A DNA stretch of 24,000 nt from Flexilinea sp. (GTDB taxonomy: Bacteria; Chloroflexota; Anaerolineae; Anaerolineales; Anaerolineaceae). The translations under genes and the position numbers were made by a program. Positions 4,237 to 24,000 of this stretch are shown one piece after another. Under the pieces are notes generated by a model. The model saw only the letters and a program-made list of their open reading frames with translations, did not search any database and was not told the origin of the DNA. Numbering within the stretch: position 1 is the first letter of the stretch; each line of letters opens with the position of its first letter. Location of the stretch: assembly GCA_017432685.1 (NCBI GenBank), contig JAFRIR010000042.1, positions 15,249-39,248 on the forward strand. The letters are read 5' to 3'.

Positions 4237-4270
4237 AATTCGATCTTCCTTTCAGATGGATTTCGATTAA

Positions 4271-4307
4271 TAAAAAAAGAAGACTGCCGTTTCAGAGCAG
4301 CCTTCTT
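4271..4307 (-). terminator. Rho-independent terminator hairpin in the leader of the tape measure gene (cassette A)
   Basis: The minus-strand RNA reads AAGAAGGCUGC-UCUGAAACG-GCAGUCUUCUU. This is an 11-bp stem (4277-4287 / 4297-4307) with one G.U pair that would be an A.C mismatch on the plus strand. It is followed by UUUUU. The hairpin lies 35-70 nt upstream of the ATG at 4236. Confidence 0.6.
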
Positions 4308-4330
4308 AGGGTCTTTTTTTCTCTATATCT

Positions 4331-4358
4331 ATTATATCATAACAGAGAATAAGAGCAA
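4331..4358 (-). promoter_or_regulatory. Candidate extended -10 promoter (TGATATAAT) with a weak -35, cassette A
   Basis: On the minus strand TGATATAAT occupies 4339-4331 and TTGCTC occupies 4358-4353, with a 16-nt spacer. The same 11-mer ATGATATAATA recurs at 15901-15891. There is no experimental support. Confidence 0.4.
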
Positions 4359-4454
4359 ATTTTCAGTCGTAGAAATATATATAGTTATTCGTTATTTTCT
4401 TAGCGTTTTTTTACTCATGCCGTCTCTTGCGCACTAATAAAACTTTGACATCAT

Positions 4455-4475
4455 CCCTCGGCTAAAGCACGTGGG
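4455..4475 (-). repeat. Solo IS200/IS605-type subterminal hairpin (GCTTTAGC core)
   Basis: The minus-strand sequence CCCACGTGCTTTAGCCGAGGG ATGATGTCAAAG aligns with both end hairpins of the TnpB element. The RE reads CCCATCGAGCTTTAGCTCGTGGG TACGTCAAGC and the LE reads CCTTGGAGCTTTAGCTCCGAGG ATGAAAGCTG. No adjacent transposase ORF is present. Confidence 0.45.
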
Positions 4476-4561
4476 CTTTCTTGTGGTAGTTCCGCAAAAC
4501 AGAATATCCCGTACTCAATAATGTTGTTTGTCTTATTCTTTCAACAACAATTGGTCATATC

Positions 4562-7500
4562 CTACACGCAGACATAATAAACTCTATTTGTTTCCAGTGA
4601 TGATGTTCCGGCAGTTAAATCTGTCGTTGATATAGAATAATAATTCGAGTAATTTCCACTATGCAATAGTTTATACCAAGTCGGTGCTGAAGCTGAAGAT
4701 GTTGCAGTTTTATATTCCCCGTACCCAACATACCAATCAGCCGTGCGGTGCAAATTTACGATATAAGATGCCAAATAATTGCTATGAGACGAAACAAAAC
4801 CGTTATACCATCCATTTGTTGGTCCGCCTGATGGGGCGGATTGGTCAAAAGTTACATATTTACTTAATGGCTGTGTCGTAGTAAAACTATAGCTTGATTT
4901 ATGCAAGTTTGTTGATGTACTTATTGTCCATGATTTTTTACTTCCAGCACTGGTTCCTGTTGTATCTCCTGTTAGCGTTACCGTTGCGTCAGAAGAGAAT
5001 TGCGTTGCAGTCGCAGCATTCCCCGTACAACTTGTTGAGGAACCGTCACAATTACCAGTTATGTTTGCTTCAAGTTTTCCCGTTGCACCATTCCAAGCAA
5101 TACTTCTTGCAAAACTATTCGTTGTACGACCTTTTTCCCCATATCCAATATACAACCTATCATCACTGGATGAATAAGTTGATATTGCTATTCTGCCATT
5201 TTTTGTCGGGCCACATATCCAACCACCATAAGTGTTTGCATCATCTGTAAGTGTTACAACAGAGCTGGTCAGACTGTTCACCCAGGTATTACTTCTGTAA
5301 CTTGATGTCATTGCTCCCGTCATCGTTCCGCCAGCCAACGGAAGATAACTGTGCGTATGGCTTGAAGCAGCCGCACCGATATTCGCCGGAGTGATCCCAA
5401 GATTCGTCCGTGCATTGGCGGCTGTTGTGGCGCCTGTGCCACCGTTTGTAATGGCGACGGTTCCGGTGACATTGGTTGCGTTTCCGTTGAGCTTACCGTT
5501 AAACTGAGCTGCATATACGTTTCCATTGCGACAATTGATGGAAACAGCGTTCGTTCCTGTGTACGTTGCTCCTGAACAACCGGTAGTAAATGACACACCA
5601 TACCAGGAATTAAACACGAGATTATTCAATGCACCACCGACACCGTTCGCAGCATCATTTGGTCCGTTATAAATAGAATTTTGTCCTTTGCTATTGAAAT
5701 TTAATGCTCCCGTCATCGTGTCGCCGGATTTGCTGACTTTTCCGCTCAGTGCCGTATCCATTTCCGATTCAGTATAATATCGATCGTCATGCGTGTGACC
5801 GCTGTCAGCCTTTCCCGACAGTCCGTCCTGGACAAACGCCGTTGTTGCAATCTGCGTTGTATTCGTGCCGGAAGCAGCCGTTGGAGCAGTCGGCGTTCCT
5901 GTGAAATTCGGCGAAACCAGCTGCGCTTTTGATTTCAGTTCATTTGCGATCTGCACGACCGTTGCCTCACTCGAATCCCATGCTCCAGCGGGATGGTCAA
6001 TTTCATACCGCCACAATTCGTTATCATAGATCACATAATCACCGATGGAATAGGTCACAGCATCACTGAACTGTGTCGCAACGGCATCATTGCTGATTTT
6101 CCCGTCAAGAGCATCTTTCAGGTCGGTCTGAGATGTGATATTTCCGAAAATCGCGCCCCAGTTCACAGCACTGACAAAATGTCCTTCGCTGTCAGCGATC
6201 ATCAGCCACGTGCCGTTCCGCCTTCCGTAATAATTCCCGTCAAACGGAGCATCGCTCTTTCCCGCCAGTGACCCGAGGTCTGAGACATTGGCTTTCCGTT
6301 TCAGCTCTCCGGCTGCTGTCACCGCTGAAACCAGTGTGCTGTCCCACGTTCCCTCCGCACTGTGGGGAGTTGTAAACCGATACAGTACGCCATCCTTCAG
6401 GACAAAGTCCCCCGCTTCATAATCCTGAACCGCAAAATTGTCGGCGACAATCGCCTCAACTTCCGAATCATCCCAGGGTGTGGATGTTACTTCATGTGCG
6501 GATGTAAAAATATAATAGGAATTGTCATAAACGCAGATATCCCCGACAGTGTAATCCTGCGTGCTGTCAAATTCACCGGCTGGAATTTCTTCTGCTTCCT
6601 CAGCATCAAAGGCGCCGGAACTGTGCGCGGATGTGAACTGATACAGGGCACCGTTATAAAGAACATAATCATCTACGTCATATGCCTGTTCACTGCTGAA
6701 TCCGTTGACAGACAATTGTGATACCTCATTATCATCCCAGGGCGTTTCTGCCGTATGGGAAGCGGTGAATAGATAATACGCATCCTCATACATGACAACA
6801 TCCCCGACAGCATATTCCGACGTATCGTCGAACAGCTCTGCTGTGATTTCCGTGACTTCATTTACATCAAAGGCGCCGGAGCCGTGTGAAGATGTAAATT
6901 GATACAGCGTATCGTTGTATATCACATAATCACCGATAGCATAGGATTCCTCGCTGTCAAATTCCTCAGCTGTCAGTTCCGATACGTCGTCATCGTCCCA
7001 CGGTGAATGCAGAGTATGCTCTGCGGTAAAGATATAATAGGCGTCCTGATATGTGACGATATCCCCGGCGGCATAATTCTGCGTGTCGTCAAAATCCTCC
7101 GCGGTGATTTCCGTGACTTCCGTATCATTCCATGCGTTCTGAGACGGGGAGGTGAATCGGTAGAAGGTATTGTTGTAGATACAATAATCCCCAACATTGT
7201 ATACGGCTGCCGGATCATATGCAGCGCAGAGATTCGGGTCAAAATCCAGATAGGCCATTTCGCCAAGGGCATCCATCTCCCCCTGCACAAAGGCAGTCGT
7301 CGCGATTTGCGTGCTGTCATCCCCGACAGCAGGGGTTGGAGCCGTCGGTGTTCCGCTCAGTGCAGGAGAGACCAGCGGAGCTTTTGCGTTCAGTGCGTTC
7401 TGCAAATCTGTTTGATTTGCAAGACTGCCCTGAATTTCGCCCCAGTCCAGATGGGTACCGGATTCAAAATAGATATACTCATCCTCATAAGAAGAATGGA

Positions 7501-8704
7501 TCCCCACTCCATGAGGCCCCTGCGGGATAGCAAAGTTGAGGATCGCCGCATAGGCTGTTCCCGAGTTCGTCACTCTCGCCTGTTCGCCGGAGGCAAGGGT
7601 CGTGACACTTCCGACACTGACCGTCGCTGCATCTCCTTTATCTCCCTTCGGTATGCCAAAATTGAACACGGCGTCATGACTGTCGCCCGAATTGGATACG
7701 GTCGGATTCGATCCTTCCGGGAGGACTGTAGCTGTCCCGGCCGTAATGGTCGCCGCGTCTCCCTTATCTCCTTTATCGACAATTCGCAGCCAGTATGTGG
7801 TGTTGGATAATGCAGTTTCCGCGGGAACATTGCGTTTGGCAAGGTATCCGTTCCCGGCATCATAGACTAAATCCAAACGGGTATATGCTATGGAATTTGA
7901 CCACACACCCACAGGATGGATAGCAATCTGTACGGATTCGGGATTGTCCAGTCCCGCGTTATTGGTCCAGCTGAGAATCCCCGCCTCATCAACGGACGGT
8001 TCATAGTACCAGCCCGCATCCAGGATGATCTCGTTACCTTCCGTGGCACTGTACGGGTCGGGGAGATACCTTGCCCCTGCCCCTGCTCCATTCGGGATGT
8101 AGAAATCGAAGATAGCATCGTTTACAGTCCCCCTCATGACCACACTTGCGGGCGTTCCCGCGGGTACAGTGGTCGTATTCCCGACCTGCACGGTAGCTCT
8201 GTCCCCCTTTTCCAGCACAAAGTCCAGAATCGCATCGTAAATTGTCCCGCGGTTTGTGACAGATGGAGACGATCCCGATGTCACATTTCCTACCCGAACG
8301 GTCGCCGCTTTCCCGTAATTCACGGAATTGGCGCAGATCACCCGCTCCATGAAAGCATCTTCGTATACGATGACAAAGAATGCCCGCATCCCGGTATACT
8401 GAAAGGAATATGTTCCGCTGATGTTTCTGCTCCATTCGGTCGATACGGCAAAGGCACGCCCTTCGTTGGTCATATACTGCACAAAGGCATAATGCTGATC
8501 CGTACAGATCTCTCCGTTCCGGTACAAGTCCATGGTCAGCGTCCCGTCAGGGACTCCTGTCATGGTAAGCCGCAATTCCCATACATCGCCATCTCTCCCC
8601 TGCGGGCCTGTCGCTCCTGTAGCCCCCTGTATGCCCTGTTTTGTGTACTGCATAACAATCGGGTTCTCGTTTACTTGAATCATGATCCCTGTTTTCTTTG
8701 CCAT
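4562..8704 (-). CDS. Large phage tail fibre / receptor-binding protein (~1380 aa)
   Basis: The ORF track gives 4562..8758. I prefer the internal ATG at 8704 (MAKKTGIMIQVNENPIV), which is preceded by GCGGGGTAAAA. The protein has a short collagen-like GxY run (GIQGATGATGPQGRDGD) and repeated beta-rich modules (TVxVGxVTxxxxxxxxVTNxGTxxDAIxxFxIPxG). It has 8 copies of a ~43-aa YxxGDxVxY...FTxxH...WD repeat. It also carries motifs common in phage fibres (GHTHDDRYYTESE, NGGTGATTAANARTNLG). Its C-terminus is homologous to that of the 555-aa fibre. The stop codon is TAG. Confidence 0.8.
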   Translation of the reverse strand: MAKKTGIMIQVNENPIVMQYTKQGIQGATGATGPQGRDGDVWELRLTMTGVPDGTLTMDLYRNGEICTDQHYAFVQYMTNEGRAFAVSTEWSRNISGTYSFQYTGMRAFFVIVYEDAFMERVICANSVNYGKAATVRVGNVTSGSSPSVTNRGTIYDAILDFVLEKGDRATVQVGNTTTVPAGTPASVVMRGTVNDAIFDFYIPNGAGAGARYLPDPYSATEGNEIILDAGWYYEPSVDEAGILSWTNNAGLDNPESVQIAIHPVGVWSNSIAYTRLDLVYDAGNGYLAKRNVPAETALSNTTYWLRIVDKGDKGDAATITAGTATVLPEGSNPTVSNSGDSHDAVFNFGIPKGDKGDAATVSVGSVTTLASGEQARVTNSGTAYAAILNFAIPQGPHGVGIHSSYEDEYIYFESGTHLDWGEIQGSLANQTDLQNALNAKAPLVSPALSGTPTAPTPAVGDDSTQIATTAFVQGEMDALGEMAYLDFDPNLCAAYDPAAVYNVGDYCIYNNTFYRFTSPSQNAWNDTEVTEITAEDFDDTQNYAAGDIVTYQDAYYIFTAEHTLHSPWDDDDVSELTAEEFDSEESYAIGDYVIYNDTLYQFTSSHGSGAFDVNEVTEITAELFDDTSEYAVGDVVMYEDAYYLFTASHTAETPWDDNEVSQLSVNGFSSEQAYDVDDYVLYNGALYQFTSAHSSGAFDAEEAEEIPAGEFDSTQDYTVGDICVYDNSYYIFTSAHEVTSTPWDDSEVEAIVADNFAVQDYEAGDFVLKDGVLYRFTTPHSAEGTWDSTLVSAVTAAGELKRKANVSDLGSLAGKSDAPFDGNYYGRRNGTWLMIADSEGHFVSAVNWGAIFGNITSQTDLKDALDGKISNDAVATQFSDAVTYSIGDYVIYDNELWRYEIDHPAGAWDSSEATVVQIANELKSKAQLVSPNFTGTPTAPTAASGTNTTQIATTAFVQDGLSGKADSGHTHDDRYYTESEMDTALSGKVSKSGDTMTGALNFNSKGQNSIYNGPNDAANGVGGALNNLVFNSWYGVSFTTGCSGATYTGTNAVSINCRNGNVYAAQFNGKLNGNATNVTGTVAITNGGTGATTAANARTNLGITPANIGAAASSHTHSYLPLAGGTMTGAMTSSYRSNTWVNSLTSSVVTLTDDANTYGGWICGPTKNGRIAISTYSSSDDRLYIGYGEKGRTTNSFARSIAWNGATGKLEANITGNCDGSSTSCTGNAATATQFSSDATVTLTGDTTGTSAGSKKSWTISTSTNLHKSSYSFTTTQPLSKYVTFDQSAPSGGPTNGWYNGFVSSHSNYLASYIVNLHRTADWYVGYGEYKTATSSASAPTWYKLLHSGNYSNYYSISTTDLTAGTSSLETNRVYYVCV
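5351..5485 (-). repeat. ~135-bp segment shared with the 555-aa fibre gene (direct repeat, copy 1)
   Basis: This aligns by eye with 10271..10404 and includes a 31-bp identical core, ccggagtgatcccaagattcgtccgtgcatt. It encodes NVTGTVAI(T/A)NGGTGATTAANARTNLGITPANIGAA. Confidence 0.7.
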
Positions 8705-8800
8705 TTTTACCCCGCAAGTTCGATGTAGTCGATATCTTTTATTCTGCAATAATGCCATAGATGGAATTTACCCCCATGGCATTTTTCGTGTTTCTTCCCG

Positions 8801-9133
8801 TTATTCTGCTTCCGGCGGGAATACATCCGTGATCCATTCAAGGCGATTCGCCATAATCCGCACGACAACTGTATGAACAAGGGCATCCGTGATTTCCGTC
8901 GCATTCTTCACGTCATCGTCGGAGACAAATAGTCCGGTGACAATGCGGATGGTATAGCTCGGGTCTTCCAGAATCATTCGAATTGCACGGCGGGACTGCT
9001 GCCGCAGCGTTTCTCCCTCGATGTTTTCCACACCGACGGAAGCCCAGTACCCCGCCCAATCGAGCAGTTCGATGGCAATCATCTGGTGTAATTCACCACT
9101 GTCATATAAATTCCAACGTTCCTGATTTGTCAT
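8801..9133 (-). CDS. Hypothetical protein, 110 aa (between the fibre genes)
   Basis: The ORF has a strong RBS (GGAGGAAAA-ATG) and is tightly packed with its neighbours. I recognise no family. Confidence 0.6.
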   Translation of the reverse strand: MTNQERWNLYDSGELHQMIAIELLDWAGYWASVGVENIEGETLRQQSRRAIRMILEDPSYTIRIVTGLFVSDDDVKNATEITDALVHTVVVRIMANRLEWITDVFPPEAE

Positions 9134-9157
9134 TTTTCCTCCAATTTGTTTATTTGT

Positions 9158-9994
9158 TTACAGTTGATTCATTGCCGTACATACTTCTTTGTGCTGAGCA
9201 GCAGTCAATGAGACGCTGTAAAAGGCAGCAGCTATAAGTGTCACATACGAATCTTTAGCTAATGTTTTTCTATCAAGTTGACCTGTAGCCCATTCATCCC
9301 AATTTGAGCGGGCTGAAGTTGTTGTTGCAGCATTCCCATTAATATAAAAAGTGGAATCACTAAATCCCACAACACCGCTTGCGCCGACTGCGGTACCAGA
9401 TCGGTAGTAGAAACGGTAACCACCATCTGCCCAATTTCCATCCCAACTATATATCAGAACTGGATTATTACTTGTTATAATATCTCTTCCCTCGCCGCTG
9501 GCAAATCCATCCAGGTCTAATACTGAACTAAGATATCGATTATAGGATGATCCACCCGGCCACGCTAAATTACAAGTACCGCTTGTTGGCCCACCTGAAA
9601 AACGTACAATGATAGTATTTATAGATTGAGCATTTAGAGTGTCGTTATTTAAAGACCAGCCTAAATTTACATTAGAGTATTTAACTGCATATCCAGATGC
9701 TGCTGACCAACCGCTTGCGACATTATTTTTCGTCAGCGTATATCCATGCCCGCTTCTATCGGATAATGCTTCCGTTTCGCTTGCCGCTCCCTTGAATTGA
9801 TACGCCGCCAAACAGTTTGACGACGCCACGCCTGTCGGGAGCCAGAAATCCGAGCTGTACACCAGCCGTGCAACCCCATTGACCCCGACATAGGCTTTTT
9901 TGACCTTCCGCGCAACCCCGCTGACACCGACGTAGATGTTTTTTACCTGCCGCGCGACCCCTGAGACGCCGACATATGTTTTTGGTCCTGCCAT
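9158..9994 (-). CDS. Tail-associated protein, 278 aa, with an N-terminal triple YVGVxGVARxVKK repeat
   Basis: The RBS is AGGAGGATT-ATG. The N-terminus has three consecutive ~14-aa repeats (TYVGVSGVARQVKN / IYVGVSGVARKVKK / AYVGVNGVARLVYS). A beta-rich C-terminal domain follows that may be lectin or LamG-like, which is a guess. The gene sits between two fibre genes. Confidence 0.6.
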   Translation of the reverse strand: MAGPKTYVGVSGVARQVKNIYVGVSGVARKVKKAYVGVNGVARLVYSSDFWLPTGVASSNCLAAYQFKGAASETEALSDRSGHGYTLTKNNVASGWSAASGYAVKYSNVNLGWSLNNDTLNAQSINTIIVRFSGGPTSGTCNLAWPGGSSYNRYLSSVLDLDGFASGEGRDIITSNNPVLIYSWDGNWADGGYRFYYRSGTAVGASGVVGFSDSTFYINGNAATTTSARSNWDEWATGQLDRKTLAKDSYVTLIAAAFYSVSLTAAQHKEVCTAMNQL

Positions 9995-10005
9995 AATCCT
10001 CCTTA

Positions 10006-11673
10006 TTATGAATATACGAAATAAACAGCATTTGTTGTTAAAGCAGAAGTACCTGCTGTAAGGTCTGTAGTAGAAATGGAGTAATCAGGTTTTGTCGCAA
10101 TAGCTGTGATACCGCAAACTGTTTTTAAATTTGCCGGAGAAATTGCCTGTATTACCTGACTGAATCCATCGCAAGGTTGCCAAGCACATAAATAACTTGC
10201 AGTGGTTGCTTCACCTGACCATTTCAAGCCTAATGTATATGATGAATTCGTGGCATCTTTCACACTGTTATGTGTGTGGCTTGTTGCAGCCGCGCCGATA
10301 TTAGCCGGAGTGATCCCAAGATTCGTCCGTGCATTCGCGGCAGTCGTTGCTCCTGTACCGCCATTGGCAATGGCGACGGTTCCTGTTACATTGGCGGCAT
10401 TTCCGCTGATGCTACCAGAAGCCGTACCATTCCACGACCAAACATTATTAACGCATTTTAATTGCGCCGTACCACTTGATGAGCCATTTCTTGTGATATA
10501 AAAATTTCCGCTATTGTTGAAAATTCCCCATGAATTAGCAGATGTACCAGAATCCCCGGTGTTATCTGCTCCGCATAATACTACAGTACACCAGTTGTTG
10601 TACATGTGAATGCGTATTCCTTCATTGTAATTTCCACTGGTTGGATTGATATTTACTATACCGAATGATTTTGCATTAAGCGTTCCTGGAAAAGTCGTAT
10701 TTCCGCTCGCATCAAGCAGTGTCAGCGTTCTTGTGACTGTAGAATAAACACCTGTATATTGCCGGACGTATATCGGCTCCGTTCCATCATCCGCCGTCGC
10801 AATCTCCATCCACCCGGCATTATTTGCAGTAGCACCTACCGCAACCCGACCATAATCATTTGAACCGCCAACTAAACGTATCTGTCTTGTCCCGGTGTCA
10901 CCGTTAGTGCTGAACAGCAAATCTCCTGTCAACGTACCGCCGGATAAAGGAAGTGCGCCCAAATTAGACAATGCGCCAGCCGCAGTCGTTGCTCCAGTAC
11001 CACCATTTGCAACGGCGACAGTTCCTGTGACATTAGCTGCTTTACCGGAATAATTGCCTGCCGTATCAATATAATAATTATTTGTTGTATTATTTCCTGC
11101 ATCGATATTTGCTTTTGTGCCGTAAGCAAAGGCAAAACTTTCGTTATCGTAATTTCCAATGGCCCAACCACCGCCGGTTTTTGTCTGAAAAGCCACAGCG
11201 GGAATCCATTGGCTGGTATTTAAAGTACCTTTTTTTACATAAATCCCTGCTTGTGTACCGCCAGTCCCCGCAATCCAACTTGTACCGCTCCCAGGACTTG
11301 ATACAATTGATCCTGTCATTGTGTCCCCGGTTTTACTGACCTTCCCGCCTAACTTTGTATCCGTCTCCGATTCAGTGTAATATCTGTCATCATGCGTGTG
11401 TCCAGTATCGGATTTTCCACTGCTCAACGCATTGAGTCCGATGCTCAACGCCTGTAATATTTCACTGATAGTAACCGTCCTGACTTCCGTGCTATCCCAT
11501 GCACCTGAATCATGCGCTGATGTGAATTGATATAACACGCCATCCTTCAGAACATAGTCTCCAACGGCATATTCTTCTTCAGGCGAAAATTCATCCGCTA
11601 TCGATGCTCTTGCTTTGGAATCGGCAAAATCTCTGTATACTCCGTCCCGTAAAGTTTTTGATATATCCGCCAT
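10006..11673 (-). CDS. Phage tail fibre protein, 555 aa (paralogue of the large fibre)
   Basis: The RBS is GGGAAGGAAA. It shares several elements with the 1398-aa ORF: one YAVGDYVLKDGVLYQFTSAHDSGAWD repeat, GHTHDDRYYTESE, two NGGTGATTAA motifs and the C-terminal YSISTTDLTAGTSxL motif. Confidence 0.8.
   Translation of the reverse strand: MADISKTLRDGVYRDFADSKARASIADEFSPEEEYAVGDYVLKDGVLYQFTSAHDSGAWDSTEVRTVTISEILQALSIGLNALSSGKSDTGHTHDDRYYTESETDTKLGGKVSKTGDTMTGSIVSSPGSGTSWIAGTGGTQAGIYVKKGTLNTSQWIPAVAFQTKTGGGWAIGNYDNESFAFAYGTKANIDAGNNTTNNYYIDTAGNYSGKAANVTGTVAVANGGTGATTAAGALSNLGALPLSGGTLTGDLLFSTNGDTGTRQIRLVGGSNDYGRVAVGATANNAGWMEIATADDGTEPIYVRQYTGVYSTVTRTLTLLDASGNTTFPGTLNAKSFGIVNINPTSGNYNEGIRIHMYNNWCTVVLCGADNTGDSGTSANSWGIFNNSGNFYITRNGSSSGTAQLKCVNNVWSWNGTASGSISGNAANVTGTVAIANGGTGATTAANARTNLGITPANIGAAATSHTHNSVKDATNSSYTLGLKWSGEATTASYLCAWQPCDGFSQVIQAISPANLKTVCGITAIATKPDYSISTTDLTAGTSALTTNAVYFVYS
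10271..10404 (-). repeat. ~135-bp segment shared with the large fibre gene (direct repeat, copy 2)
   Basis: See 5351..5485. The two copies are in the same orientation and share a 31-bp identical core. Confidence 0.7.
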
Positions 11674-12089: not shown

Positions 12090-12300
12090 GCTTGACGTAC
12101 CCACGAGCTAAAGCTCGATGGGATTCTTTGAAAGAAGGTTGGTATTTAAGTCTCCACCTAACCAAAGTAGGTCAGGCCACCCTTATTCTTTGAGGGCTCG
12201 CCAAAAGCCCAATACACAGTTTTTCGTAATCGAAATTCTGCTTGCTTTTCCGTAAGATATTGGCACTGCCGTTAATGTCGGCATTCATGATGGTGCCATT
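12070..12300 (-). ncRNA. Predicted omega (right-end) guide RNA region of the TnpB element
   Basis: This call is by analogy with characterised TnpB systems, where the omega RNA overlaps the tnpB 3' end and the RE and reads into ~16-20 nt of flank. It contains the RE hairpin at 12100-12122. The extent is not determinable from sequence alone. Confidence 0.3.
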
Positions 12301-13664
12301 TTGACTTTTATACAATCCGCGGTAAATCCGTCTTCCTTTGAACTCGCCTAAATAAGGCTGTTCCGGCAAATAGACAGGCAATACATCTAAGTCAAGAAAA
12401 CTACTTTTTGAAGTATAGGATTCTTCCTGCTCGATATATTCCATACCGTATTTATCGCAGAGGTATTCAAGCTGCTGGCGAAGATCACCGTGAGGAATTT
12501 GTACAAAATTCTGGTTGTTTATTTTGCCCATATCGGAATTTTGTTTAATTCCCGGATTATATCCAAACACGATTTTTCCAATATCATGCTCAATACAGTA
12601 GTTGATAATGTACCTTGCAGTTTTTCTGATAGCGTCCTTTACCTGATTATTCCGTTTCTCTGTGATTTTGTTGATACGTTCCGTTGTATTTAGCTTTTGC
12701 TTCATAGATATAGAGCGGAGACGTGCAACTTCTTTGTTCCATTGGTGATTGATTGATTTGAGTTTACGACCGTCCACTATGAACGACGTCCCAATGGTAG
12801 TAATGCAGGCTGCTATATTGTCCACGCCGGGATCTATCGACAAAATATTGTTTTTATTTAGATGTAAATCCTCCGATACAGTTTTATATACATACTGAAT
12901 TTTGAAAACTTTACCGTGATTGCAAGGGAGAATCCGAACCTCTTTGATGACTTTGTCCTTTAGACGTTCTGGAAAAGGAATCAAGATTTCCTTTAAATCT
13001 GGATGAGCTGACCGGAAGGCTCTGCTCATAGGTACTTGAAAATATCCGTCACTGATTGATATTGCATTTTGAGACATTATCAGAGTGAACATACCACCCT
13101 TTTTGTGATAGTGTGGAATTTTTACATCGTGATAGCTGTATTCCCCTTTTTTACATTTCTTCAACAATTTGAAAAATGATTTAAAACTTCGATCCACAAC
13201 CTTCAATGTCTGCTGTGCAACACCCGCTTGCAGTAACGAATAGTTTTCGTTGGTCTTGCACTCATGGTAATTGTTTTCGTAAGTAAGAAATTTTTTTGAA
13301 TTGAAATAGCACTGTCGGATATTATAGAGAGCAACATTGTACAGATTATTGGAGTAGCGGCACATTTCCCGTAAAGCTTCGTACTGTATTTTGCTGAGCC
13401 CACGGATCACGTTGCTTTGTACTGCAAATGCTGCCATTTTTACTACCTCCTTCCATTTTAATTATTATATATTATTATACATTATTATTTAAATATCATA
13501 TGTATTTACTGATTTATTTGCGTTTTTATTTAATTTGCAGTTATTTATTTATAGCTATACATGAAGTCACCAGTACAACTTTACAGCATTATATAGAAAA
13601 TCAAAAGCGATAATCAGCTTTCATCCTCGGAGCTAAAGCTCCAAGGTTTTCAGCTTATTCAGAT
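12090..13664 (-). mobile_element. IS200/IS605-family element carrying only tnpB (IS1341-type, no Y1 TnpA)
   Basis: tnpB is flanked by related imperfect hairpins with a GCTTTAGC core, at 13625-13646 (LE side) and 12100-12122 (RE side). The boundaries assume IS608-like geometry (~18-19 nt 5' of the LE hairpin, 10 nt 3' of the RE hairpin). With those boundaries the flanking ORF fragments join in frame. Uncertainty is +/-20 bp. Confidence 0.65.
12172..13437 (-). CDS. tnpB: TnpB (IS605 OrfB-family RNA-guided endonuclease), 421 aa
   Basis: It has an N-terminal HTH_OrfB-like region (YEALREMCRYSNNLYNVALYNIRQ). RuvC-I is LSIDPGVDNIAAC (D202), followed by EESYTSK, and RuvC-III is NADINGSANI (D387). 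Length and motif order are typical of the family. The RBS is GGAGGTAGTAAAA-ATG. Confidence 0.9.
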   Translation of the reverse strand: MAAFAVQSNVIRGLSKIQYEALREMCRYSNNLYNVALYNIRQCYFNSKKFLTYENNYHECKTNENYSLLQAGVAQQTLKVVDRSFKSFFKLLKKCKKGEYSYHDVKIPHYHKKGGMFTLIMSQNAISISDGYFQVPMSRAFRSAHPDLKEILIPFPERLKDKVIKEVRILPCNHGKVFKIQYVYKTVSEDLHLNKNNILSIDPGVDNIAACITTIGTSFIVDGRKLKSINHQWNKEVARLRSISMKQKLNTTERINKITEKRNNQVKDAIRKTARYIINYCIEHDIGKIVFGYNPGIKQNSDMGKINNQNFVQIPHGDLRQQLEYLCDKYGMEYIEQEESYTSKSSFLDLDVLPVYLPEQPYLGEFKGRRIYRGLYKSQNGTIMNADINGSANILRKSKQNFDYEKLCIGLLASPQRIRVA

Positions 13665-14741: not shown

Positions 14742-15405
14742 TGTTTTCCCCCTGACTCTTTCGTTTGTCTTTGCTTTTTCTGCTCAGATTTACCAGTGCG
14801 TTCTTCAGATTGTCTTCCTGCTTCTGCAGCTTTTCACTCTTTGGCAGCGCAAAATCCTTTTGCAATTTCTGCACCCGGTTCCTCTCCTCTTTCGGCATTT
14901 TCCCTGTCGTCTTTGCCTGCCGCGCCCCGACCACGAAATTTACCGATGTTGTATCCGACATCATCAGCCCTTCAAACAGGGTCAGGAACTCCCACCAGTG
15001 CATATACTCGATCTCCCACAGCCGGATATGGTAGAAAGACGCGAAGGAGCAGTAAATATAAGCGGAATCGTACACAAAATCAAAGGACGGCGGTTTTGGA
15101 TGTTCCTTGTCCCGTTCCTTTCGCTTTTTGGATGCGTCATTATCCACCTTGGGATATCCGCTGTAAAACTGCGCAACGGAATCAAGAAAGTCATCAGCCA
15201 GGATGTTCCCTTTCGGGTTTTCCTTTACCACAAGATCATACAATTCCAGAAATATTTTTGTCCGGTCTTCATCGGTTGCGACAGAAAACTCTTCCAGGAG
15301 ATACCCGGCTTTCATCCATGTGCGGAAATCCGTGTAGACATCATAAGGGATGCCGTCTACCACAATGGTATCGGGCATCCCGTCCAAAAGGATATTCTTA
15401 ACCAC
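14701..15405 (-). CDS. Phage_Gp15-family protein (tail assembly, normally adjacent to the TMP), 234 aa
   Basis: The N-terminus IVVDGIPYDVYTDFRTWMKAGYLLEE resembles the Gp15 signature (G-x-x-Y-x-h-x-TDFR). The C-terminal tail is Lys/Glu-rich. It has a GTG start with no clear SD; an alternative ATG lies 9 codons in. The stop is TAG. Confidence 0.6.
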   Translation of the reverse strand: MVKNILLDGMPDTIVVDGIPYDVYTDFRTWMKAGYLLEEFSVATDEDRTKIFLELYDLVVKENPKGNILADDFLDSVAQFYSGYPKVDNDASKKRKERDKEHPKPPSFDFVYDSAYIYCSFASFYHIRLWEIEYMHWWEFLTLFEGLMMSDTTSVNFVVGARQAKTTGKMPKEERNRVQKLQKDFALPKSEKLQKQEDNLKNALVNLSRKSKDKRKSQGENNETGDDLSSDERD

Positions 15406-17137: not shown

Positions 17138-17354
17138 AATAGATAATTTTAGCACAACTATGCATAGATGACTATCACAAATTGACGGCTTAATAACGAC
17201 GAAAATTGCAAAAATGTGGTTGTAGTTTTCCCCCACGGATTTGATGATTTTTTTAGACATTCCAAACTGATGGTATAAGTCTTGCAAGGTTATATTGTAT
17301 GATAACTATCACGAAAGCAGACTATTATTTATGAAAAAAATCTTTCTCTCATAG

Positions 17355-20300
17355 TTGTTATTTTGTGTTGCTCTATTTCACCAAATCGCATTCGCCGATG
17401 ACGAGGATATTGTATCTTGGACAACTATGGGAGAACCAAACATAAACATCAAGTACAGAATTGACTCTGAGGGAACACTCCATTTTGCAAAGGGAGAGAT
17501 TCAGTCAACAGATGATCCGACGCTTATTAAAACATTTGATTATTCAGAGAATGAACTTTATCACAAAATTATAAAAGTACAAGCTGACGACAAGATCCTT
17601 GTCAGGAATAACGGTACAGCATCGCTGTTTGAAGGTTGTTTTAAACTCGCCGAAGCAGACCTCACGAATTTTGATCTTTTTGACCCATCAAACACAAATT
17701 TCAGCAAAATGTTTGAAGGTTGCACTTCATTACAAAAAATACTGATAAACCAATGGGATACATCAAATATAAACAATATGTCCTATATGTTTTACAACTG
17801 TCAATCACTGGAATCTTTAGATGTGAGCAATTGGGATACATCCAACGTAACCAATATGGAACACTTGTTTGCTAATTGCAAGAAACTAACAGTATTAGAT
17901 GTAAGCAAATGGAATACATCCAATGTGACTAACATGAGGTACTTATTTTTTGATTGTAGAAAACTGACAAAATTAGACGTGAGTAATTGGAACACCGCTA
18001 ACGTAACAGATATGTCTTATTTGTTTTATTATTGCAGTGGTATAACTGAATTAAATGTAAGCAGCTGGAATACATCAAATGTTACTGACATGCACTACTT
18101 ATTCACCCTCTGCTCAGAATTGACAGGAATAAATGTGAGCAGCTGGGATACATCCAATGTAACCGATATGTCAGGAATGTTCGCCTCATGCAGTAAATTA
18201 CAATCATTGGATGTCAGCAAATGGAAAACGGGCAGTGTGACGAATATGGCTTCTATGTTCCAATTGAGCCACGATCTGAGATTTCTGAATGTAAGTGGGT
18301 GGGATACTTCGAAGGTAACCGATATGTCAAGGATGTTCGATAATTGTCTCCAATTACAGGCATTGGATGTCAGCAATTGGAAAACAGGTAATGTCATGAA
18401 AATGAACTTTATGTTTGGCTCCTGTGAATCACTGACATCGTTGGATGTATCAGGGTGGGATACATCCAAGGTCACTATTATGAATCATATGTTTTACCTT
18501 TGCAAAAAACTTATCTCGATAAATCCCGGTAGTTGGGATACATCCGAGGTTACAAATATGACCTTCATGTTTTATTATACTGATCTCACTGAATTGGACA
18601 TGCACAACTGGGATACAAGTAAAGTCACAGATATGAATTCCATATTCAGATATGCTCCTCTTCAAAAACTGATTTTAGGAACGGATTTCCGATTCACTAT
18701 CAATCATTTCGACCTTTATCTCAACACAGGCTATTGGACATATATCAAAAAAGATGCAAACATTACATCTCACGTCGATTACGGAACTGAATATCTGTCA
18801 GCATATAATTCAAATAAATTCAGCCCGGCATATAACAATAACCCAGATACCATGGCTGGTACCTGGGTTCTCAATCCTGTTCCTGTCATAATCAACGGTG
18901 TGGATGAAACCCATATTTATGACAATTCTGATTTTTGCACACAAATCAACTATCGGTTATCCAGTACCGATGAGCGGTTTACAGATACACAGGCTGCACT
19001 CGTTACATACAGCGGCGAAAACCAGGTTTGCGGGAAAGAACCCGGGGAATACCCATATCATCTGGATGTTGAAAAATTTTCTTATACCGGCAGCGATTAT
19101 TACGTTTATTTCAAACTTGGGACGGACGGAAAGCTGCTCATAAACAATCCGACCTTAATGCTTACCATCACCGCCGCCAGCAGTTCGAAAACCTATGACG
19201 GCACGGCTCTTAAGGCGGAAAGCTGGACCAGCAGCGGACTGACAGAAGGGGACACGATCACCTCCGTCACCGTCACCGGCAGCCAGACAAATGCCGGAAG
19301 CTCCGCCAATGTTCCATCCGGAGCAAAGATCAAAAATCAAAATGGCGAAGATGTGACAGATAACTATACGATCAGCTATGTCAATGGCAAGCTCGAAGTA
19401 AACAAATTCAGCAATGTAACGGTGACTATTGTCGGTGAAAGCAACACGACCGATTATGACGGCCAGTTACATGAAGTGAATGGATATACAGCCAGTGCCA
19501 GTACGCCGCTCTACCAGACAACCGGAGATCGCCCGGATTTCTCGTTTACTGGTACAGCTTTTGCATCCCGAAGAGACTCCGGTACTTCTCCAATGGGCTT
19601 GAAACCTGAAATGTTCAGCAATACAAACACAAATTTTGAAACAGTGACCTTTCATGTTACAGATGGTTACCAGACAATCAACAAGATCAATGTAACTGTT
19701 ACGATCAAGGGCAACAGCGACACAACAGCCTATGACGGACAATCACACACGGTCAGCGGACATACCGCTACCGCAGATACCAATTTATATAACGTCAATA
19801 ACAGCTTCACTTTCACCGGTACTGCATCTGCGACACGTACCGACGCAGGCACATCACAGATGGGCCTATCCTCTGATCAATTCAGAAATGAAAATACTAC
19901 CAACTTCAACACTGTGAAATTTCTTGTGACCGATGGTTACTTGACAATCATCCCCATCGACACCACCGTAACCATTACCGGACACCATGCCACCGCTCCA
20001 TACAATGGTGAGAACCACACTGTCAGTGGATATGATGTATCCATCGGCAATCTTCTCTATTCTGAAACAGATTTTTCATTCAGCGGTACGGCTGAGGCAG
20101 AGCGTACAGAAGCCGGAACGACGAACATGGGCCTGACAGCAAACCAATTCGCGAACAAAAACCAAAATTTCAGGACCGTTAAATTCTCGGTGACGGACGG
20201 ATATCAGCAGATCACTCCGATCAATGCTGCCGTAAAAATAACCGGTCACGGTAATTCCTCTCCCTATGACGGAAATGAACACCGCGTGGAAGGATACGAT

Positions 20301-21896
20301 GTGCAAATCGAAACTCCGCTGTATAAGACAACGGATTTTACCTTCAGCGGCACAGCCGAAGCAAAACGAACTGACGCGGGGACCACACCGATGGGCCTTA
20401 CAGCAAGCCGCTTTTCCAATTCCAATCCAAACTTTGATGTTGTGACATTCAATATCACTGACGGTTACCAGACCATCACGCCCATGGAGGAAGAGATCAT
20501 CGTTACGATCAAAGGACATACAAATTCGGCTGTTTATGATAAAACCGAACACAGCACCTCCGGTTATGATGTAACGAGCTCGAATCCGCTCTATACAGAA
20601 GCTGATATATCCTTCAGCGGCTCTGATGAGACAAAATGCACCAATGCCGGAATCTGCAGTATGGGGTTGACAGCCGAGCAATTTTCAAACATCAATCCCA
20701 ATTTCTCAAACGTTAAATTCCAGGTAACGGACGGTTACCAGGAAATCACCGCTTTGGACGGAGTCACAGTGACAATCCATGGACATAACGATACAGAAGT
20801 ATATAGCGGTTCTCCGTATGATGTTGTCCGATATGATGTATCTGTTTCCAACCCGCTCTATACAGAAGCTGATTTCACTTTTAGCGGTTCAGATACACCG
20901 GCACGTACAAACACAGGCATGGCCATGATGGGATTGAAAGCCGAACAATTTACGAATATTAATCCGAATTTCACCAATGTGATTTTCAACGTAACTGACG
21001 GCAGTCTGACAATCATACCCAAGGATCTTTCGGACGGAACGATCCGGCTGATCCTCGATCCCCAACAGGTCATCTATGACGGTCAGGAACACACCGTATC
21101 TTACAGCGTATATGATTCCGAGCGCGGAGTTACACTGATCGAGTCCGTTGAATATGAACTGATACCTGAAGAGTCCACCTTGCAGGCCACTGAAATCGGT
21201 ATCTACACAGTTGTCGTGAGTGCAGATTATATCGGAGAAACAGACAGCAACATCACAACAAAGGCTGTCAGCGGACGGAATTACTCCGGGAGAGCCTCCG
21301 ATACTTGGCAGATCATTCCCAAACCGGCTGATAACACGATGACGTTCTTCCCGATTTTCGATGAAGGCGTCAGACTGCCGAACACAGGGTTACTGTCAAA
21401 TGACTCTGTTCTGTCTTCAATTGGCCAGACAGATCTGGATATCACCCACCTGGGAATGACGCTCCAGATTCCGAGTCTTGATGTCATTGCTGAAATTGTG
21501 CAGCTTCCTTTCGAAGGCAGCACCTGGTCTGTGGATAACTTGGAATATCGTGCCGGGTTGCTCAGCGGAAGTGCCATACCCGGTAAGGGGTACAGCATCA
21601 TCGCCGCACACAACACGCTCAATTCCAGTGAATTAGGACCCTTCGCATCGCTGTCCTCTATGAAGAAGACTGACACCATCTTCATCAATGACAAAAAAGG
21701 AATAATTCAGCAGTACACTGTTTATGAAAACACTCTTTTGGAACCGGATGATTTCAAAGGGATAGCTTCAATTGCAGAACAGAAACCAGGGGCACTGATT
21801 TTGGTAACCTGTGAGAATGAAAGCGTCAATGGGGAATACCTGAACCGGCGTGTTATTTTTGCCGAGCCACTATCCGAAAATTACGGTTCCCGCTGA
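17355..21896 (+). CDS. Giant surface protein: DUF285/BspA-type 25-aa repeats, then MBG-like repeats, then LPNTG, then a C-terminal sortase domain
   Basis: About 13 repeats of LxxLDVSxWDTSNVTxMxxMFxxCxx are followed by one classical MBG-like domain (KTYDGTALKA...YVNGKLEV). Six ~89-aa repeats follow (VTIxGxxxxxxYDGxxHxVxGY...FSGTAxAxRTxAGTxxMGL...VTDGYQxIxP). LPNTG lies at 21375-21389 and a sortase-like domain follows. The track start is TTG 17355. An ATG at 17331 is in frame but separated from it by TAG 17352-17354. Confidence 0.85.
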   Translation: MLFCVALFHQIAFADDEDIVSWTTMGEPNINIKYRIDSEGTLHFAKGEIQSTDDPTLIKTFDYSENELYHKIIKVQADDKILVRNNGTASLFEGCFKLAEADLTNFDLFDPSNTNFSKMFEGCTSLQKILINQWDTSNINNMSYMFYNCQSLESLDVSNWDTSNVTNMEHLFANCKKLTVLDVSKWNTSNVTNMRYLFFDCRKLTKLDVSNWNTANVTDMSYLFYYCSGITELNVSSWNTSNVTDMHYLFTLCSELTGINVSSWDTSNVTDMSGMFASCSKLQSLDVSKWKTGSVTNMASMFQLSHDLRFLNVSGWDTSKVTDMSRMFDNCLQLQALDVSNWKTGNVMKMNFMFGSCESLTSLDVSGWDTSKVTIMNHMFYLCKKLISINPGSWDTSEVTNMTFMFYYTDLTELDMHNWDTSKVTDMNSIFRYAPLQKLILGTDFRFTINHFDLYLNTGYWTYIKKDANITSHVDYGTEYLSAYNSNKFSPAYNNNPDTMAGTWVLNPVPVIINGVDETHIYDNSDFCTQINYRLSSTDERFTDTQAALVTYSGENQVCGKEPGEYPYHLDVEKFSYTGSDYYVYFKLGTDGKLLINNPTLMLTITAASSSKTYDGTALKAESWTSSGLTEGDTITSVTVTGSQTNAGSSANVPSGAKIKNQNGEDVTDNYTISYVNGKLEVNKFSNVTVTIVGESNTTDYDGQLHEVNGYTASASTPLYQTTGDRPDFSFTGTAFASRRDSGTSPMGLKPEMFSNTNTNFETVTFHVTDGYQTINKINVTVTIKGNSDTTAYDGQSHTVSGHTATADTNLYNVNNSFTFTGTASATRTDAGTSQMGLSSDQFRNENTTNFNTVKFLVTDGYLTIIPIDTTVTITGHHATAPYNGENHTVSGYDVSIGNLLYSETDFSFSGTAEAERTEAGTTNMGLTANQFANKNQNFRTVKFSVTDGYQQITPINAAVKITGHGNSSPYDGNEHRVEGYDVQIETPLYKTTDFTFSGTAEAKRTDAGTTPMGLTASRFSNSNPNFDVVTFNITDGYQTITPMEEEIIVTIKGHTNSAVYDKTEHSTSGYDVTSSNPLYTEADISFSGSDETKCTNAGICSMGLTAEQFSNINPNFSNVKFQVTDGYQEITALDGVTVTIHGHNDTEVYSGSPYDVVRYDVSVSNPLYTEADFTFSGSDTPARTNTGMAMMGLKAEQFTNINPNFTNVIFNVTDGSLTIIPKDLSDGTIRLILDPQQVIYDGQEHTVSYSVYDSERGVTLIESVEYELIPEESTLQATEIGIYTVVVSADYIGETDSNITTKAVSGRNYSGRASDTWQIIPKPADNTMTFFPIFDEGVRLPNTGLLSNDSVLSSIGQTDLDITHLGMTLQIPSLDVIAEIVQLPFEGSTWSVDNLEYRAGLLSGSAIPGKGYSIIAAHNTLNSSELGPFASLSSMKKTDTIFINDKKGIIQQYTVYENTLLEPDDFKGIASIAEQKPGALILVTCENESVNGEYLNRRVIFAEPLSENYGSR
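17619..18680 (+). repeat. Tandem 75-78-nt coding repeats (DUF285 / 26-residue surface-protein repeat type)
   Basis: The periodic motif WDTSNVTxM / MFxxC recurs about 13 times in the translation. Confidence 0.8.
19413..21023 (+). repeat. Six tandem ~268-nt coding repeats (MBG-like ~89-aa modules)
   Basis: Repeat starts are near 19413, 19689, 19960, 20226, 20490 and 20760. The total is 1611 nt, or 6 x ~89.5 aa. Confidence 0.8.
21462..21869 (+). other. Sortase catalytic domain fused in frame to its own LPNTG-bearing protein
   Basis: The motifs are LQIPSLDV, then PGKGYSIIAAHN (His), FASLSSMKKTDTIFI, LILVTCENE (Cys) and LNRRVIFAEP (Arg). The His-to-Cys distance is 67 residues and the Cys-to-Arg distance is 12-13. 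In S. aureus SrtA the H120/C184/R197 distances are 64 and 13. Confidence 0.75.
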
Positions 21897-22123: not shown

Positions 22124-23707
22124 ATGATCATGAACCGTATCTTTGACATTATCGCTCCAGTTATCACAGTTATCGCTGTACTGTACGTCTCGTTTTCCAT
22201 TTGCAAATCGCTGTGTTCGGAAAGAAACAAAGGACAATGGTATGGATTCTTTCCATACAGCAAAAGAATCCATAGAAACTCCGGTCTGTTTCTGTTAATT
22301 CCTCTTTTGGCCCTGGCATCATTCACGGCACCAGAGATGTCTGTATTTGCGGAAGGAACAAGCGATTATTGCGGTGACCCGGCAGAAAACGATGGCAAGA
22401 ACCTTATCTGGTCTTTTGATGATGCTGCCGGAACGCTCACCATCAGCGGCGAAGGAAAAATGCAGGAATCCAACTATCCGTGGAGTGACTTATCAAGTGC
22501 CATAGAAAATGTCGTTCTCTCTCAAGGCGTCACATCGATCGGACCGAGAGCATTTGCGGGATTCACAGGGCTGTCATCCATCAATATCCCGAGCAGCATA
22601 ACCCATATCGGAGCCAGTGCATTTGAAAATTCAGGGCTGAGAACCATCACCGTTGAACTTGAAAACCGAGGAACTCCGCTTGTTCTTGGAGAAAATACCT
22701 TCACAGGCACAAACACTTACGAAGCATCTATCAAAGTTCCCGGGTATCACAATGTAACCTTCAGCGTCAACCCCGATAATACCGGCTTTTCTATCGGAGA
22801 ATTCTTATTCGGAAACAGTGAACCCGACCCGGGGAGCGCACTGCTGAGATGGACAGACCGGACAGTACAAACTGAATTGACCGCGACAGGCGGAATTCCC
22901 AATACATACCAGGTCATTTTCGAAAAAAATGCTGCTGATGCTACCGGAACAATGTATCCGCAAACCTTTACCTATGACAAAGCGCAATCTTTGGACGAGA
23001 ATCAGTATATCCGTCCCGGGTATTCATTCACAGGATGGGCTGTTGAAGCCAAAGGCAACGTTGTTTATGCCGACAAATCAGAAGTCAAGAACCTCACTGA
23101 AAATCAGGATGGGATTGTACTGTTATATGCCAAATGGAAAAAAACCGGTTCCACTTCCGGAATGAATTTCTTCCGGCTCCGCAATGACTGTATTCTTCCT
23201 TCAACCGGTTTCTCATCACTGCGACCGACCACCCTGTCCTCACAGCCAATGAACCTGAGCTATAAGCCCACAGGATTGAGGATGATGATTCCCTCTCTGA
23301 ATGTGGACATGGAATTGGTATTCATACCGAGGGACAACAATTCCTGGGCAGTAGAATGGCTGGGAGATCGCGGAGGAATTCTTGAAGGAAGCGCCCTGCC
23401 CGGAGATGGATATAGTTTTGTTGCGGCACATAATACCTTAAACGACACTGAATACGGCCCGTTTGCGATGCTTGGCGCGCTGGAAGTGAACGACCTGATC
23501 ACCATCAACGGTAATGACAGGAATAATAAGACGCTAAAGACATTCCGTGTGTTTGAAAATACAATCCTGACACCGGATGACATGAAGACATTGGAAAAAA
23601 TTGCAGGAAGTGAAGAAAATACCCTTGTCCTGGTGACCTGTGAGAACGAGTCAGCAGAAGGCGGCTATCTGAACCGCCGGGTCATTTTTGCAAAGCCAGG
23701 AAAATAA
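22124..23707 (+). CDS. Surface protein: N-terminal hydrophobic segments, BspA-type LRR, Listeria-Bacteroides (Flg_new) repeat, LPSTG, C-terminal sortase domain
   Basis: GGAGG at 22109-22113 lies 10 nt before ATG 22124; the track start TTG 22106 is less likely. The LRR_5-like segment is GVTSIGPRAFAGFTGLSSINIPSSITHIGASAFENSGL. The Flg_new-like segment is YQVIFEKNA...RPGYSFTGWA...LLYAKWKK. LPSTG lies at 23195-23209 and a sortase-like domain follows. Confidence 0.85.
   Translation: MIMNRIFDIIAPVITVIAVLYVSFSICKSLCSERNKGQWYGFFPYSKRIHRNSGLFLLIPLLALASFTAPEMSVFAEGTSDYCGDPAENDGKNLIWSFDDAAGTLTISGEGKMQESNYPWSDLSSAIENVVLSQGVTSIGPRAFAGFTGLSSINIPSSITHIGASAFENSGLRTITVELENRGTPLVLGENTFTGTNTYEASIKVPGYHNVTFSVNPDNTGFSIGEFLFGNSEPDPGSALLRWTDRTVQTELTATGGIPNTYQVIFEKNAADATGTMYPQTFTYDKAQSLDENQYIRPGYSFTGWAVEAKGNVVYADKSEVKNLTENQDGIVLLYAKWKKTGSTSGMNFFRLRNDCILPSTGFSSLRPTTLSSQPMNLSYKPTGLRMMIPSLNVDMELVFIPRDNNSWAVEWLGDRGGILEGSALPGDGYSFVAAHNTLNDTEYGPFAMLGALEVNDLITINGNDRNNKTLKTFRVFENTILTPDDMKTLEKIAGSEENTLVLVTCENESAEGGYLNRRVIFAKPGK
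23282..23698 (+). other. Sortase catalytic domain, second fusion
   Basis: The motifs are MMIPSLNV, then PGDGYSFVAAHN (His), FAMLGALEVNDLITI, LVLVTCENE (Cys) and LNRRVIFAKP (Arg). His-to-Cys is 70 residues and Cys-to-Arg is 12-13. By eye it is roughly half identical to the domain at 21462-21869. Confidence 0.75.
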
Positions 23708-23849: not shown

Positions 23850-24000
23850 ATGGCAGAAAATCCATCCTATTCTGAGCCAGTGACCGGAGAAGGAACTCTG
23901 ATCATTCATGCTAAGTCACTTGAAGACAAAAGCATCAGTCTCAGCTTAAATCCGAAAGAAGTGAATTATGACAGGAAAGAGCACGAAGTGACTTATTCTG
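23850..24000 (+). CDS. Start or fragment of a third related surface-protein ORF (runs off the right edge)
   Basis: The frame is open from 23673 to the window end and the first ATG is at 23850. The translation ...SLEDKSISLSLNPKEVNYDRKEHEVTYS resembles DLSDGTIRLILDPQQVIYDGQEHTVSYS of the 1513-aa protein. No SD and no signal peptide are visible, so it may be a remnant. Confidence 0.3.
   Translation, partial: MAENPSYSEPVTGEGTLIIHAKSLEDKSISLSLNPKEVNYDRKEHEVTYS

Follow-up and report, generated by a model that had tools for sequence, protein, structure and literature searches.

What becomes of the division of labor between a sortase and its substrate when both lie on one polypeptide? Sortases are membrane-anchored, multi-turnover enzymes, separate from substrates that are held in the membrane by a tail of their own. 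The question is raised by a 24,000-nucleotide stretch of Flexilinea sp. contig JAFRIR010000042.1 (positions 15,249 to 39,248; hereafter the window), in which one gene, gene 1 or fusion 1, ends in the sorting motif LPNTG, a short linker and a sortase domain. This fusion is real and is neither a chance match nor an assembly artifact. Gene 1 belongs to a family of secreted surface proteins in which, by sequence, the sorting signal is rebuilt as an LPXTG motif, a linker of ~25 residues and a complete, soluble sortase domain, and each fusion protein probably carries the enzyme that attaches it.

A sortase domain in place of the membrane anchor

The original prediction, made from the letters of the window, described an in-frame LPNTG followed by a 24-residue, non-hydrophobic linker, and the translation of gene 1 bears this out (Table 1). 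The C-terminal portion of the linker already belongs to β-strand 1 in the structural model discussed below. One LPxTG motif is observed in gene 1 against ~0.024 expected from composition, and it sits at a position fixed throughout the family, which argues that it is not a chance occurrence. The predicted spacings also agree with the residue positions: 67 residues separate His1419 from Cys1486, and 12 or 13 separate Cys1486 from Arg1498/1499. The Leu of LPNTG lies 78 residues ahead of the catalytic His. The protein ends in FAEPLSENYGSR, with the stop 27 residues past the Cys and a final tail of LSENYGSR; the predicted lack of a transmembrane segment holds, whereas the tail after FAEP is eight residues long rather than nine.

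A second fusion, gene 2, follows on the same strand and encodes, in order, a signal peptide, leucine-rich repeats (LRR) of the BspA type, a Flg_new repeat, LPSTG, a linker matching the family consensus and a sortase domain, ending in GK. The motif is 168 residues from the C-terminus in gene 1 and 165 in gene 2, compared with ~30–40 in canonical substrates. Past the motif, the highest 19-residue Kyte-Doolittle mean is 1.23 in gene 1, within strand 1 of the domain, and 0.99 in gene 2, within a β-strand of the sortase domain; the hydropathy scan and inspection of the tails reveal no membrane segment or hydrophobic helix and no basic tail after the motif in either protein. These data, together with the family survey below, uphold the proposal that the enzyme stands where the substrate's anchor would be. 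A frameshift or assembly error can be rejected as the source of the fusion: Logan contig L065, an independent assembly reported for two samples, matches the window without a difference over 10,351 bases, contig L066, from another sequencing run, is identical over its overlap with the window, and the same architecture recurs in hundreds of proteins from many assemblies.

Judged by profile, catalytic triad and predicted fold, the C-terminal domain is a true sortase, as had been proposed from its hallmark motifs. It matches PF04203 (peptidase C60; curated gathering cut-off, 26.6 bits), as do 66 of 67 relatives, and the His, Cys and Arg-Arg columns are invariant in alignments of 30 and 67 sequences (A1 and A2). 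With these catalytic residues intact, the domain looks active. An AlphaFold 2 (AF2) model of the gene 1 module, built with the 30-sequence alignment, has a mean predicted local distance difference test (pLDDT) score of 86.3 and a predicted TM-score (pTM) of 0.85, with pLDDT >95 in most blocks of the eight-stranded β-barrel of the sortase fold. The segment DEGVRLPNTG (residues 11–20 of the model) averages 86, and residues 1–3 and 26–33, the latter in the linker, fall below 50. Foldseek comparison of the model with the PDB gives 119 matches at E<=0.001, and all 50 of those listed are sortases, at a TM-score of ~0.6. Structurally, the model comes closest to class C sortases and to the lidded C. 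diphtheriae SrtA (E 5e-10 to 1e-9), and a profile search of PDB sequences agrees that class C is closest; no close homologue with a solved structure was found in these searches. Placement in an established class is less straightforward. Among the NCBIfam sortase models for classes A–F and GN, none reaches its cut-off: the scores are 37.7 bits against 166 for class F, 36.5 against 160 for class C, 21 against 165 for class D, 20.4 against 160 for class E and 22.6 against 158 for class GN, with no match to the class A and B models at E<=0.1. No curated NCBIfam model claims the family.

Table 1 Features of the fusion genes and of the surrounding window (window coordinates)
Feature	Position	Strand	Description
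Gene 1 (fusion 1)	17355..21896	+	ORF (open reading frame) from TTG, 1513 aa; database protein P0095; order: signal-peptide remnant, DUF285/PARCEL repeats, ~90-aa tandem repeats, LPNTG, linker, sortase domain
Gene 1, interrupted signal-peptide start	17331..17354	+	MKKIFLS then TAG: ATG AAA AAA ATC TTT CTC TCA TAG; TAG at 17352-17354
Gene 1, passenger: DUF285/PARCEL (Liste_lipo_26) repeats	17613..18764	+	PF03382, 275 bits; NCBIfam TIGR02167, 380 bits, 12 stretches
Gene 1, stalk	19155..21330	+	~90-aa repeated units (...YDG..H.V.GY...VTDGY..I), read from the translation; no Pfam match
Gene 1, LPNTG sorting motif	21375..21389	+	in frame; predicted scissile bond Thr/Gly
Gene 1, linker	21390..21461	+	24 residues, non-hydrophobic, LLSNDSVLSSIGQTDLDITHLGMT; directly after LPNTG
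Gene 1, sortase catalytic domain	21462..21869	+	starts LQIPSLD; PF04203, 62.5 bits, aa 1370-1505
Gene 1, catalytic residues		+	His1419 21609-21611; Cys1486 21810-21812; Arg1498/1499 21846-21851
Gene 2 (fusion 2)	22130..23707	+	525 aa; database protein P0054
Gene 2, LPSTG sorting motif	23195..23209	+	Leu 78 residues ahead of His
Gene 2, sortase domain	23285..23698	+	PF04203, 44.4 bits; His 23429-23431, Cys 23639-23641
Gene 3, start	23850..24000	+	303 aa, continues beyond the window; LPATG and sortase
Antisense shadow ORF	21281..21694	-	over the sortase module of gene 1
Phage-like tail module	1..11673	-	protein >1417 aa with tape-measure domain (PF20155); 1398-aa tail fibre
Second fibre-like protein	10006..11673	-	part of the tail module
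TnpB-like gene	12172..13437	-	OrfB_IS605 and Cas12f1-like TNB domain
ORF, 309 aa	14472..15401	+	no family match
ORF, 234 aa	14701..15405	-	Logan gene call; matches Phage_Gp15

Motif, linker and enzyme across the family

An initial search found 47 relatives, and all that reach far enough upstream carry LP[ANKSRE]TG and, behind it, a linker whose length does not vary. A database survey for this architecture, proposed along with the original prediction, was made with a family profile against 1.84 billion representatives and retrieved 336 protein clusters at E<=1e-30. Of the top 150 hits of the profile, 143 cluster representatives were newly retrieved, and these provide the statistics on the module. 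In this set, 135 contain [LMIFV]PxTG, and in 117 of those 135 the Leu position precedes the catalytic His by exactly 78 residues; Phe directly follows the motif Gly in 120. The linker has a Pro conserved at 90% and a Tyr at 94%. The same motif pattern and 78-residue spacing appear in genomic loci. Protein length ranges from 204 to 5518 residues, with passengers of up to 5300 aa ahead of the sortase domain, and the module closes the protein in every case. The chain ends 19–28 residues past the Cys, and the membrane anchor that accompanies the catalytic domain of a canonical sortase is absent, a passenger lying ahead of the domain and only this short tail behind it. No representative has a hydrophobic segment past the motif (median of the maximal 19-residue hydropathy, 0.99). 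As read from these alignments, the fixed spacing and conserved linker mark the motif as strongly constrained and geometrically coupled to the enzyme.

The region around the motif has further features. Many members carry a Cys-x-x-Cys pair ending one residue ahead of it (CDECMLPATG in P0005, CDRCSLPATG in gene 3), which might form a disulfide or bind a metal; gene 1 has no Cys before its motif and gene 2 a single one. An aromatic FF(R/P)(L/I) patch is also common ~10 residues upstream of LPXTG. The residue after the motif Gly gives no signal of co-variation with the sub-clades defined by TCENE and TCEDE, Phe being predominant in both.

We judge it somewhat better than an even bet that the sorting module of these proteins is self-contained, the fused sortase cutting its own LPXT|G in cis and transferring the passenger to an amine of the envelope. 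The precursor would be exported by its N-terminal signal peptide, after which the C-terminal sortase would fold with its substrate groove occupied by the LPXTG upstream of it. Attack of the catalytic Cys on the Thr-Gly bond would then leave the passenger held as a thioester on its former C-terminus. Resolution of this thioester by an envelope amine, most likely that of a peptidoglycan stem peptide, would anchor the passenger covalently and release the spent sortase, at a cost of one enzyme molecule per substrate molecule. This sequence is favored by the combination of invariant catalytic residues, a conserved motif at fixed distance, a conserved linker, the lack of a membrane anchor and the lack of any separate enzyme or classical substrate in view. 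The pLDDT pattern of the model, a confident motif segment between low-confidence flanks, is likewise the one expected for a peptide docked on the domain. Engineered sortase–LPXTG fusions, in which cleavage is intramolecular (PMC2901362), show that the chemistry is feasible.

The passengers belong to the repertoire usual for sortase-anchored proteins, and most N-termini are signal-like. A hydrophobic, signal-like N-terminus is present in 165 of 237 apparently complete members (~70%), with lipoboxes in a few. A Pfam scan of 67 representatives identified LRR_5 (BspA-type LRR) in 13, Flg_new in 10, DUF285 in seven, MBG_2 and Big_2 in four each, the papain-like protease Peptidase_C1 in three, FctA and Lectin_like in two each, and SpaA_2 and SHIRT in one each. 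The same repertoire is anchored in Firmicutes through classical LPXTG signals. The few pilin-type domains in this list, FctA and SpaA_2, are consistent with an alternative in which processing is mutual and occurs in trans, the fused sortases acting on the LPXTG of sibling proteins and anchoring their passengers or ligating them into fibers or a surface layer. The pilin-polymerizing class C sortases, which are the best structural and profile matches, point the same way, as do tandem gene clusters such as the four genes on the window contig. Nonetheless, a motif used only in trans would need neither the 78-residue spacing nor the conserved linker, and the fixed spacing therefore counts toward cis. 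Additionally, the passengers are extremely diverse and share no acceptor domain, and the YPK pilin motif is absent from all 233 scanned, making classical pilus polymerization improbable as a general role. Processing in trans is, on this evidence, unlikely.

Whether any other sortase or substrate accompanies the fusions was assessed in 665 kb of family loci and in the window, a sample of the flanks of family members. All 81 stretches matched by the hidden Markov model (HMM) in this sample lie in fusion-type genes or fragments of them, and nearly all form the very C-terminus of their ORF. Neither a stand-alone, membrane-anchored sortase nor an ORF with the canonical LPXTG, hydrophobic helix and basic tail was seen in it. 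Apparent stand-alone versions of the enzyme, namely database entries of 125–155 aa with only a sortase and the loci L020, L024 and L046, were examined and rejected as frameshifted, running into Ns or called from a Met before strand 1. The system looks autonomous, on sampling that is suggestive and is not a genome census.

This apparent autonomy bears on two further alternatives. In the first, LPXTG serves as a lid or pseudo-substrate that shuts the enzyme, or is cut by a separate housekeeping sortase while the C-terminal domain is otherwise employed. The motif does lie in an N-terminal extension ahead of β-strand 1, which is where class C sortases carry their lid, and profile alignment to A. 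oris SrtC2 (8t28) pairs the family's LPATGFSS with HVPTGAGSS, 27 residues before strand 1. A lid, however, would not need the invariant Pro, Thr and Gly of a perfect sorting motif, and the constant placement of the enzyme at the end of large adhesins would go unexplained. An autoinhibited enzyme would also require other substrates, of which none was found in the 665 kb, and no stand-alone sortase that could act as the housekeeping enzyme was seen in the sampled loci. These considerations make both forms of the proposal very improbable.

In the second, the module is an autoprotease that uses water as the nucleophile and detaches itself after export, freeing the passenger into the medium or to a non-covalent binding site. 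The module has no membrane tether, sortases are known from established sortase A enzymology to hydrolyze the acyl-enzyme when a nucleophile is absent, and engineered sortase–LPXTG fusions function as self-cleaving tags (PMC2901362). Yet a simple protease site would suffice for release, which leaves no reason to keep an entire transpeptidase with its invariant pair of Arg residues and strictly conserved LPXTG, the passengers are adhesin and stalk proteins of kinds that are anchored elsewhere, and release does not account for the absence of classical sorting signals in the sampled loci. We regard release as decidedly unlikely.

Several points weigh against transfer in cis. The cleavage, the acyl-enzyme and the acceptor are each a matter of inference, and the putative docking of LPNTG at the catalytic Cys is drawn from a pLDDT pattern that serves only as a proxy. 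The Gly leaving group remains attached to the enzyme once the bond is cut, which could favor religation over transfer. It is also not obvious how a soluble sortase would reach the usual acceptor, lipid II, in the membrane, for which reason mature peptidoglycan or another surface polymer is the more plausible one. Because only the flanks of family members were sampled, a housekeeping sortase and classical substrates may lie elsewhere in the genomes. Finally, gene 1 itself has a stop codon in its signal peptide and a non-consensus linker, and the mechanism may not operate for this copy.

In one sub-family (P0049, P0005, P0010, P0011, P0013, P0023 and the gene at L012:5635-6543), the sole passenger is a secreted, ubiquitin-like β-grasp domain (PF00240, 35.8 bits, and Rad60-SLD) directly ahead of CxxC-LPATG-sortase; one cluster holds 59 member sequences. 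In these proteins the domain would be activated as a C-terminal Cys thioester and then moved to an amine, outside the cell. More generally, the single-use sortase could act as a C-terminal tag, one per substrate, that converts its own passenger to a thioester and passes it to an envelope or other amine with no membrane-bound machinery, the ubiquitin-like sub-family being an extracellular, formal analogue of ubiquitin conjugation. We advance this proposal tentatively, at somewhat less than even chances. A covalent warhead against foreign targets, also raised at the outset, has no specific support.

In a scan of one genome per species, all 64 loci fall in assemblies labeled Flexilinea, Leptolinea, Anaerolineaceae or Chloroflexi/Chloroflexota, except for one record titled only "bacterium". 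Copy number can be high: the rumen metagenome-assembled genome (MAG) RUG11948 has at least 15 loci with ~18 genes, RUG13631 at least nine loci, a Flexilinea MAG seven and the isolate F. flocculi TC1 three. The family is thus a large, multi-copy one specific to Anaerolineae, filamentous bacteria of gut and sludge. No conserved neighboring gene was found at family loci. The biggest "neighbor" cluster is made up of shadow ORFs antisense to the module, like the one lying over the sortase module of gene 1; such ORFs at 19 loci cluster as a false conserved neighbor and are a trap for automated context analysis.

Gene 1 as a possibly defective copy, and its surroundings

Within the family, gene 1 is a poor exemplar, having a nonsense codon in its signal peptide and deviating at three near-invariant linker positions, whereas gene 2 is consensus-like. 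The ATG of the interrupted signal peptide lies 24 bases upstream of the TTG at 17355 and in frame with it, and the region reads MKKIFLS, stop, LLFCVALFHQIAFA and then DD (window 17331-17396). The paralogues P0091, P0119 and P0122 begin with MKK and continue into an unbroken hydrophobic core, with a sense codon for a hydrophobic residue where gene 1 has TAG, indicating that the TAG interrupts a signal peptide. The codon is reproduced in the independent contig L065 and is likely a recent nonsense mutation. Relative to the linker consensus GF..(~9)..P.....Y, gene 1 has Leu for Phe after the Gly, Gly for Pro and Ile for Tyr. Recoding of TAG was considered and rejected, since reading the codon as sense brings almost no gain elsewhere and long ORFs are intact across the window under the standard code.

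The TAG suggests that gene 1 is a recent pseudogene or a poorly exported copy. That it is a decaying pseudogene, with its LPNTG inert in the source organism, seems to us an even proposition. The stop in the hydrophobic core, its presence in a second assembly, the three linker deviations and the lack of support for genome-wide recoding speak for decay; on the other hand, the remaining frame of 1513 codons is wholly open and the catalytic residues are intact, from which it follows that any inactivation is recent. Initiation at the TTG or read-through could also still yield product. The question concerns one copy and not the family. In the stalk of gene 1, VTDG[YS] recurs at aa 768, 858, 946, 1124 and 1213.

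Downstream, gene 3 (starting at window 23850-24000) lacks a signal peptide and is paralogous to the final ~300 aa of gene 1; it may have arisen as a truncated duplicate or be a recombination cassette. Beyond the window, gene 3 is followed on L065 (10201-12255) by a fourth gene, convergent and encoding LPRTG and a sortase, which completes a four-gene cluster. Upstream, the left 16.5 kb of the window is phage-like, with a tape-measure protein, tail fibers, Phage_Gp15 and an XRE regulator. The fusion genes were considered as phage cargo, and this was rejected: no relative occurs in 2.9 million viral contigs, and most copies lie on long chromosomal contigs. Their adjacency to the phage-like region is probably incidental.

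In the phage-like region, the 1398-aa tail fiber has numerous CBM_5_12 repeats (109 bits) as well as a collagen-like GxxGxxG stretch, and it and the second fiber-like protein are encoded transcriptionally upstream of the tape-measure gene, an unusual order. The TnpB-like gene separates the tail genes from the regulatory region. Two long ORFs on opposite strands overlap at window 14472-15405.

Relation to known sorting and autoprocessing systems

The fusion family shares with the canonical sortase pathway its enzyme superfamily, the His-Cys-Arg triad, the LPXTG motif and the kinds of passenger domain. It differs in that the canonical enzyme is a separate, membrane-anchored protein, whereas here a single polypeptide carries both partners, the enzyme replacing the hydrophobic helix and basic tail, with no membrane anchor on the enzyme and an implied use of one enzyme per substrate. 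An entire lineage seems to have gone over to a fusion of substrate and enzyme, with ~18 copies in one genome, and if the proposed mechanism is correct, covalent surface display is possible without co-localization at a membrane. A single-use sortase would then be a new way for a bacterium with one membrane (monoderm) to construct its surface, and a self-contained, genetically encodable cassette for protein ligation. The finding bears on how a tethered leaving group might hold a thioester poised and on the coating of filamentous Chloroflexota, which are little studied and abundant in rumen and anaerobic digesters.

Like the fusion family, class C sortases place a functional element in an extension N-terminal to β-strand 1. 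The class C lid motif DP[WFY] is, however, absent from the linker consensus of the family, which, unlike class C, has a true sorting motif in this extension, no membrane anchor and no pilin motif in its passengers. Where family members have database names, these are "sortase", "class F sortase" or "LPXTG-site transpeptidase (sortase) family protein". Class F is the best NCBIfam class for gene 1, yet at 32.8–37.7 bits against a cut-off of 166 the label is a nearest-neighbor annotation and does not signify membership.

The closest analogy in logic is the C-terminal autoprocessing (Hint) domain of Hedgehog, a single-turnover domain that cleaves itself off via a thioester and hands the passenger N-terminal to it over to a nucleophile; its fold and attack chemistry are unrelated, and the resemblance is one of analogy only. 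PEP-CTERM proteins with exosortase, and the C-terminal domain of the type IX secretion system (T9SS) with PorU, likewise use a lineage-wide C-terminal module that is found on diverse secreted proteins and removed upon attachment to the envelope. There, processing falls to a separate protein of the membrane or outer membrane, whereas in the fusion family the enzyme resides inside the tag.

Engineered self-cleaving tags of the BISOP type are reportedly ordered sortase-LPXTG-target, and the natural order is passenger-LPXTG-sortase. This natural cassette of ~190 residues, reversed relative to the engineered tags, is a possible tool for self-ligation or self-cleavage. As in the family, the engineered tags combine sortase and LPXTG on one chain, and cleavage is intramolecular (PMC2901362), but they are artificial and intended for release rather than anchoring. 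The original prediction had noted no described natural system of this kind, and this still holds in the full-text literature searched, whose coverage is incomplete, so that absence is no proof: it describes engineered fusions only. Sortase, LPXTG motif and adhesin passengers are each known from other systems, and what appears new is their arrangement and the logic it implies, one enzyme for each substrate.

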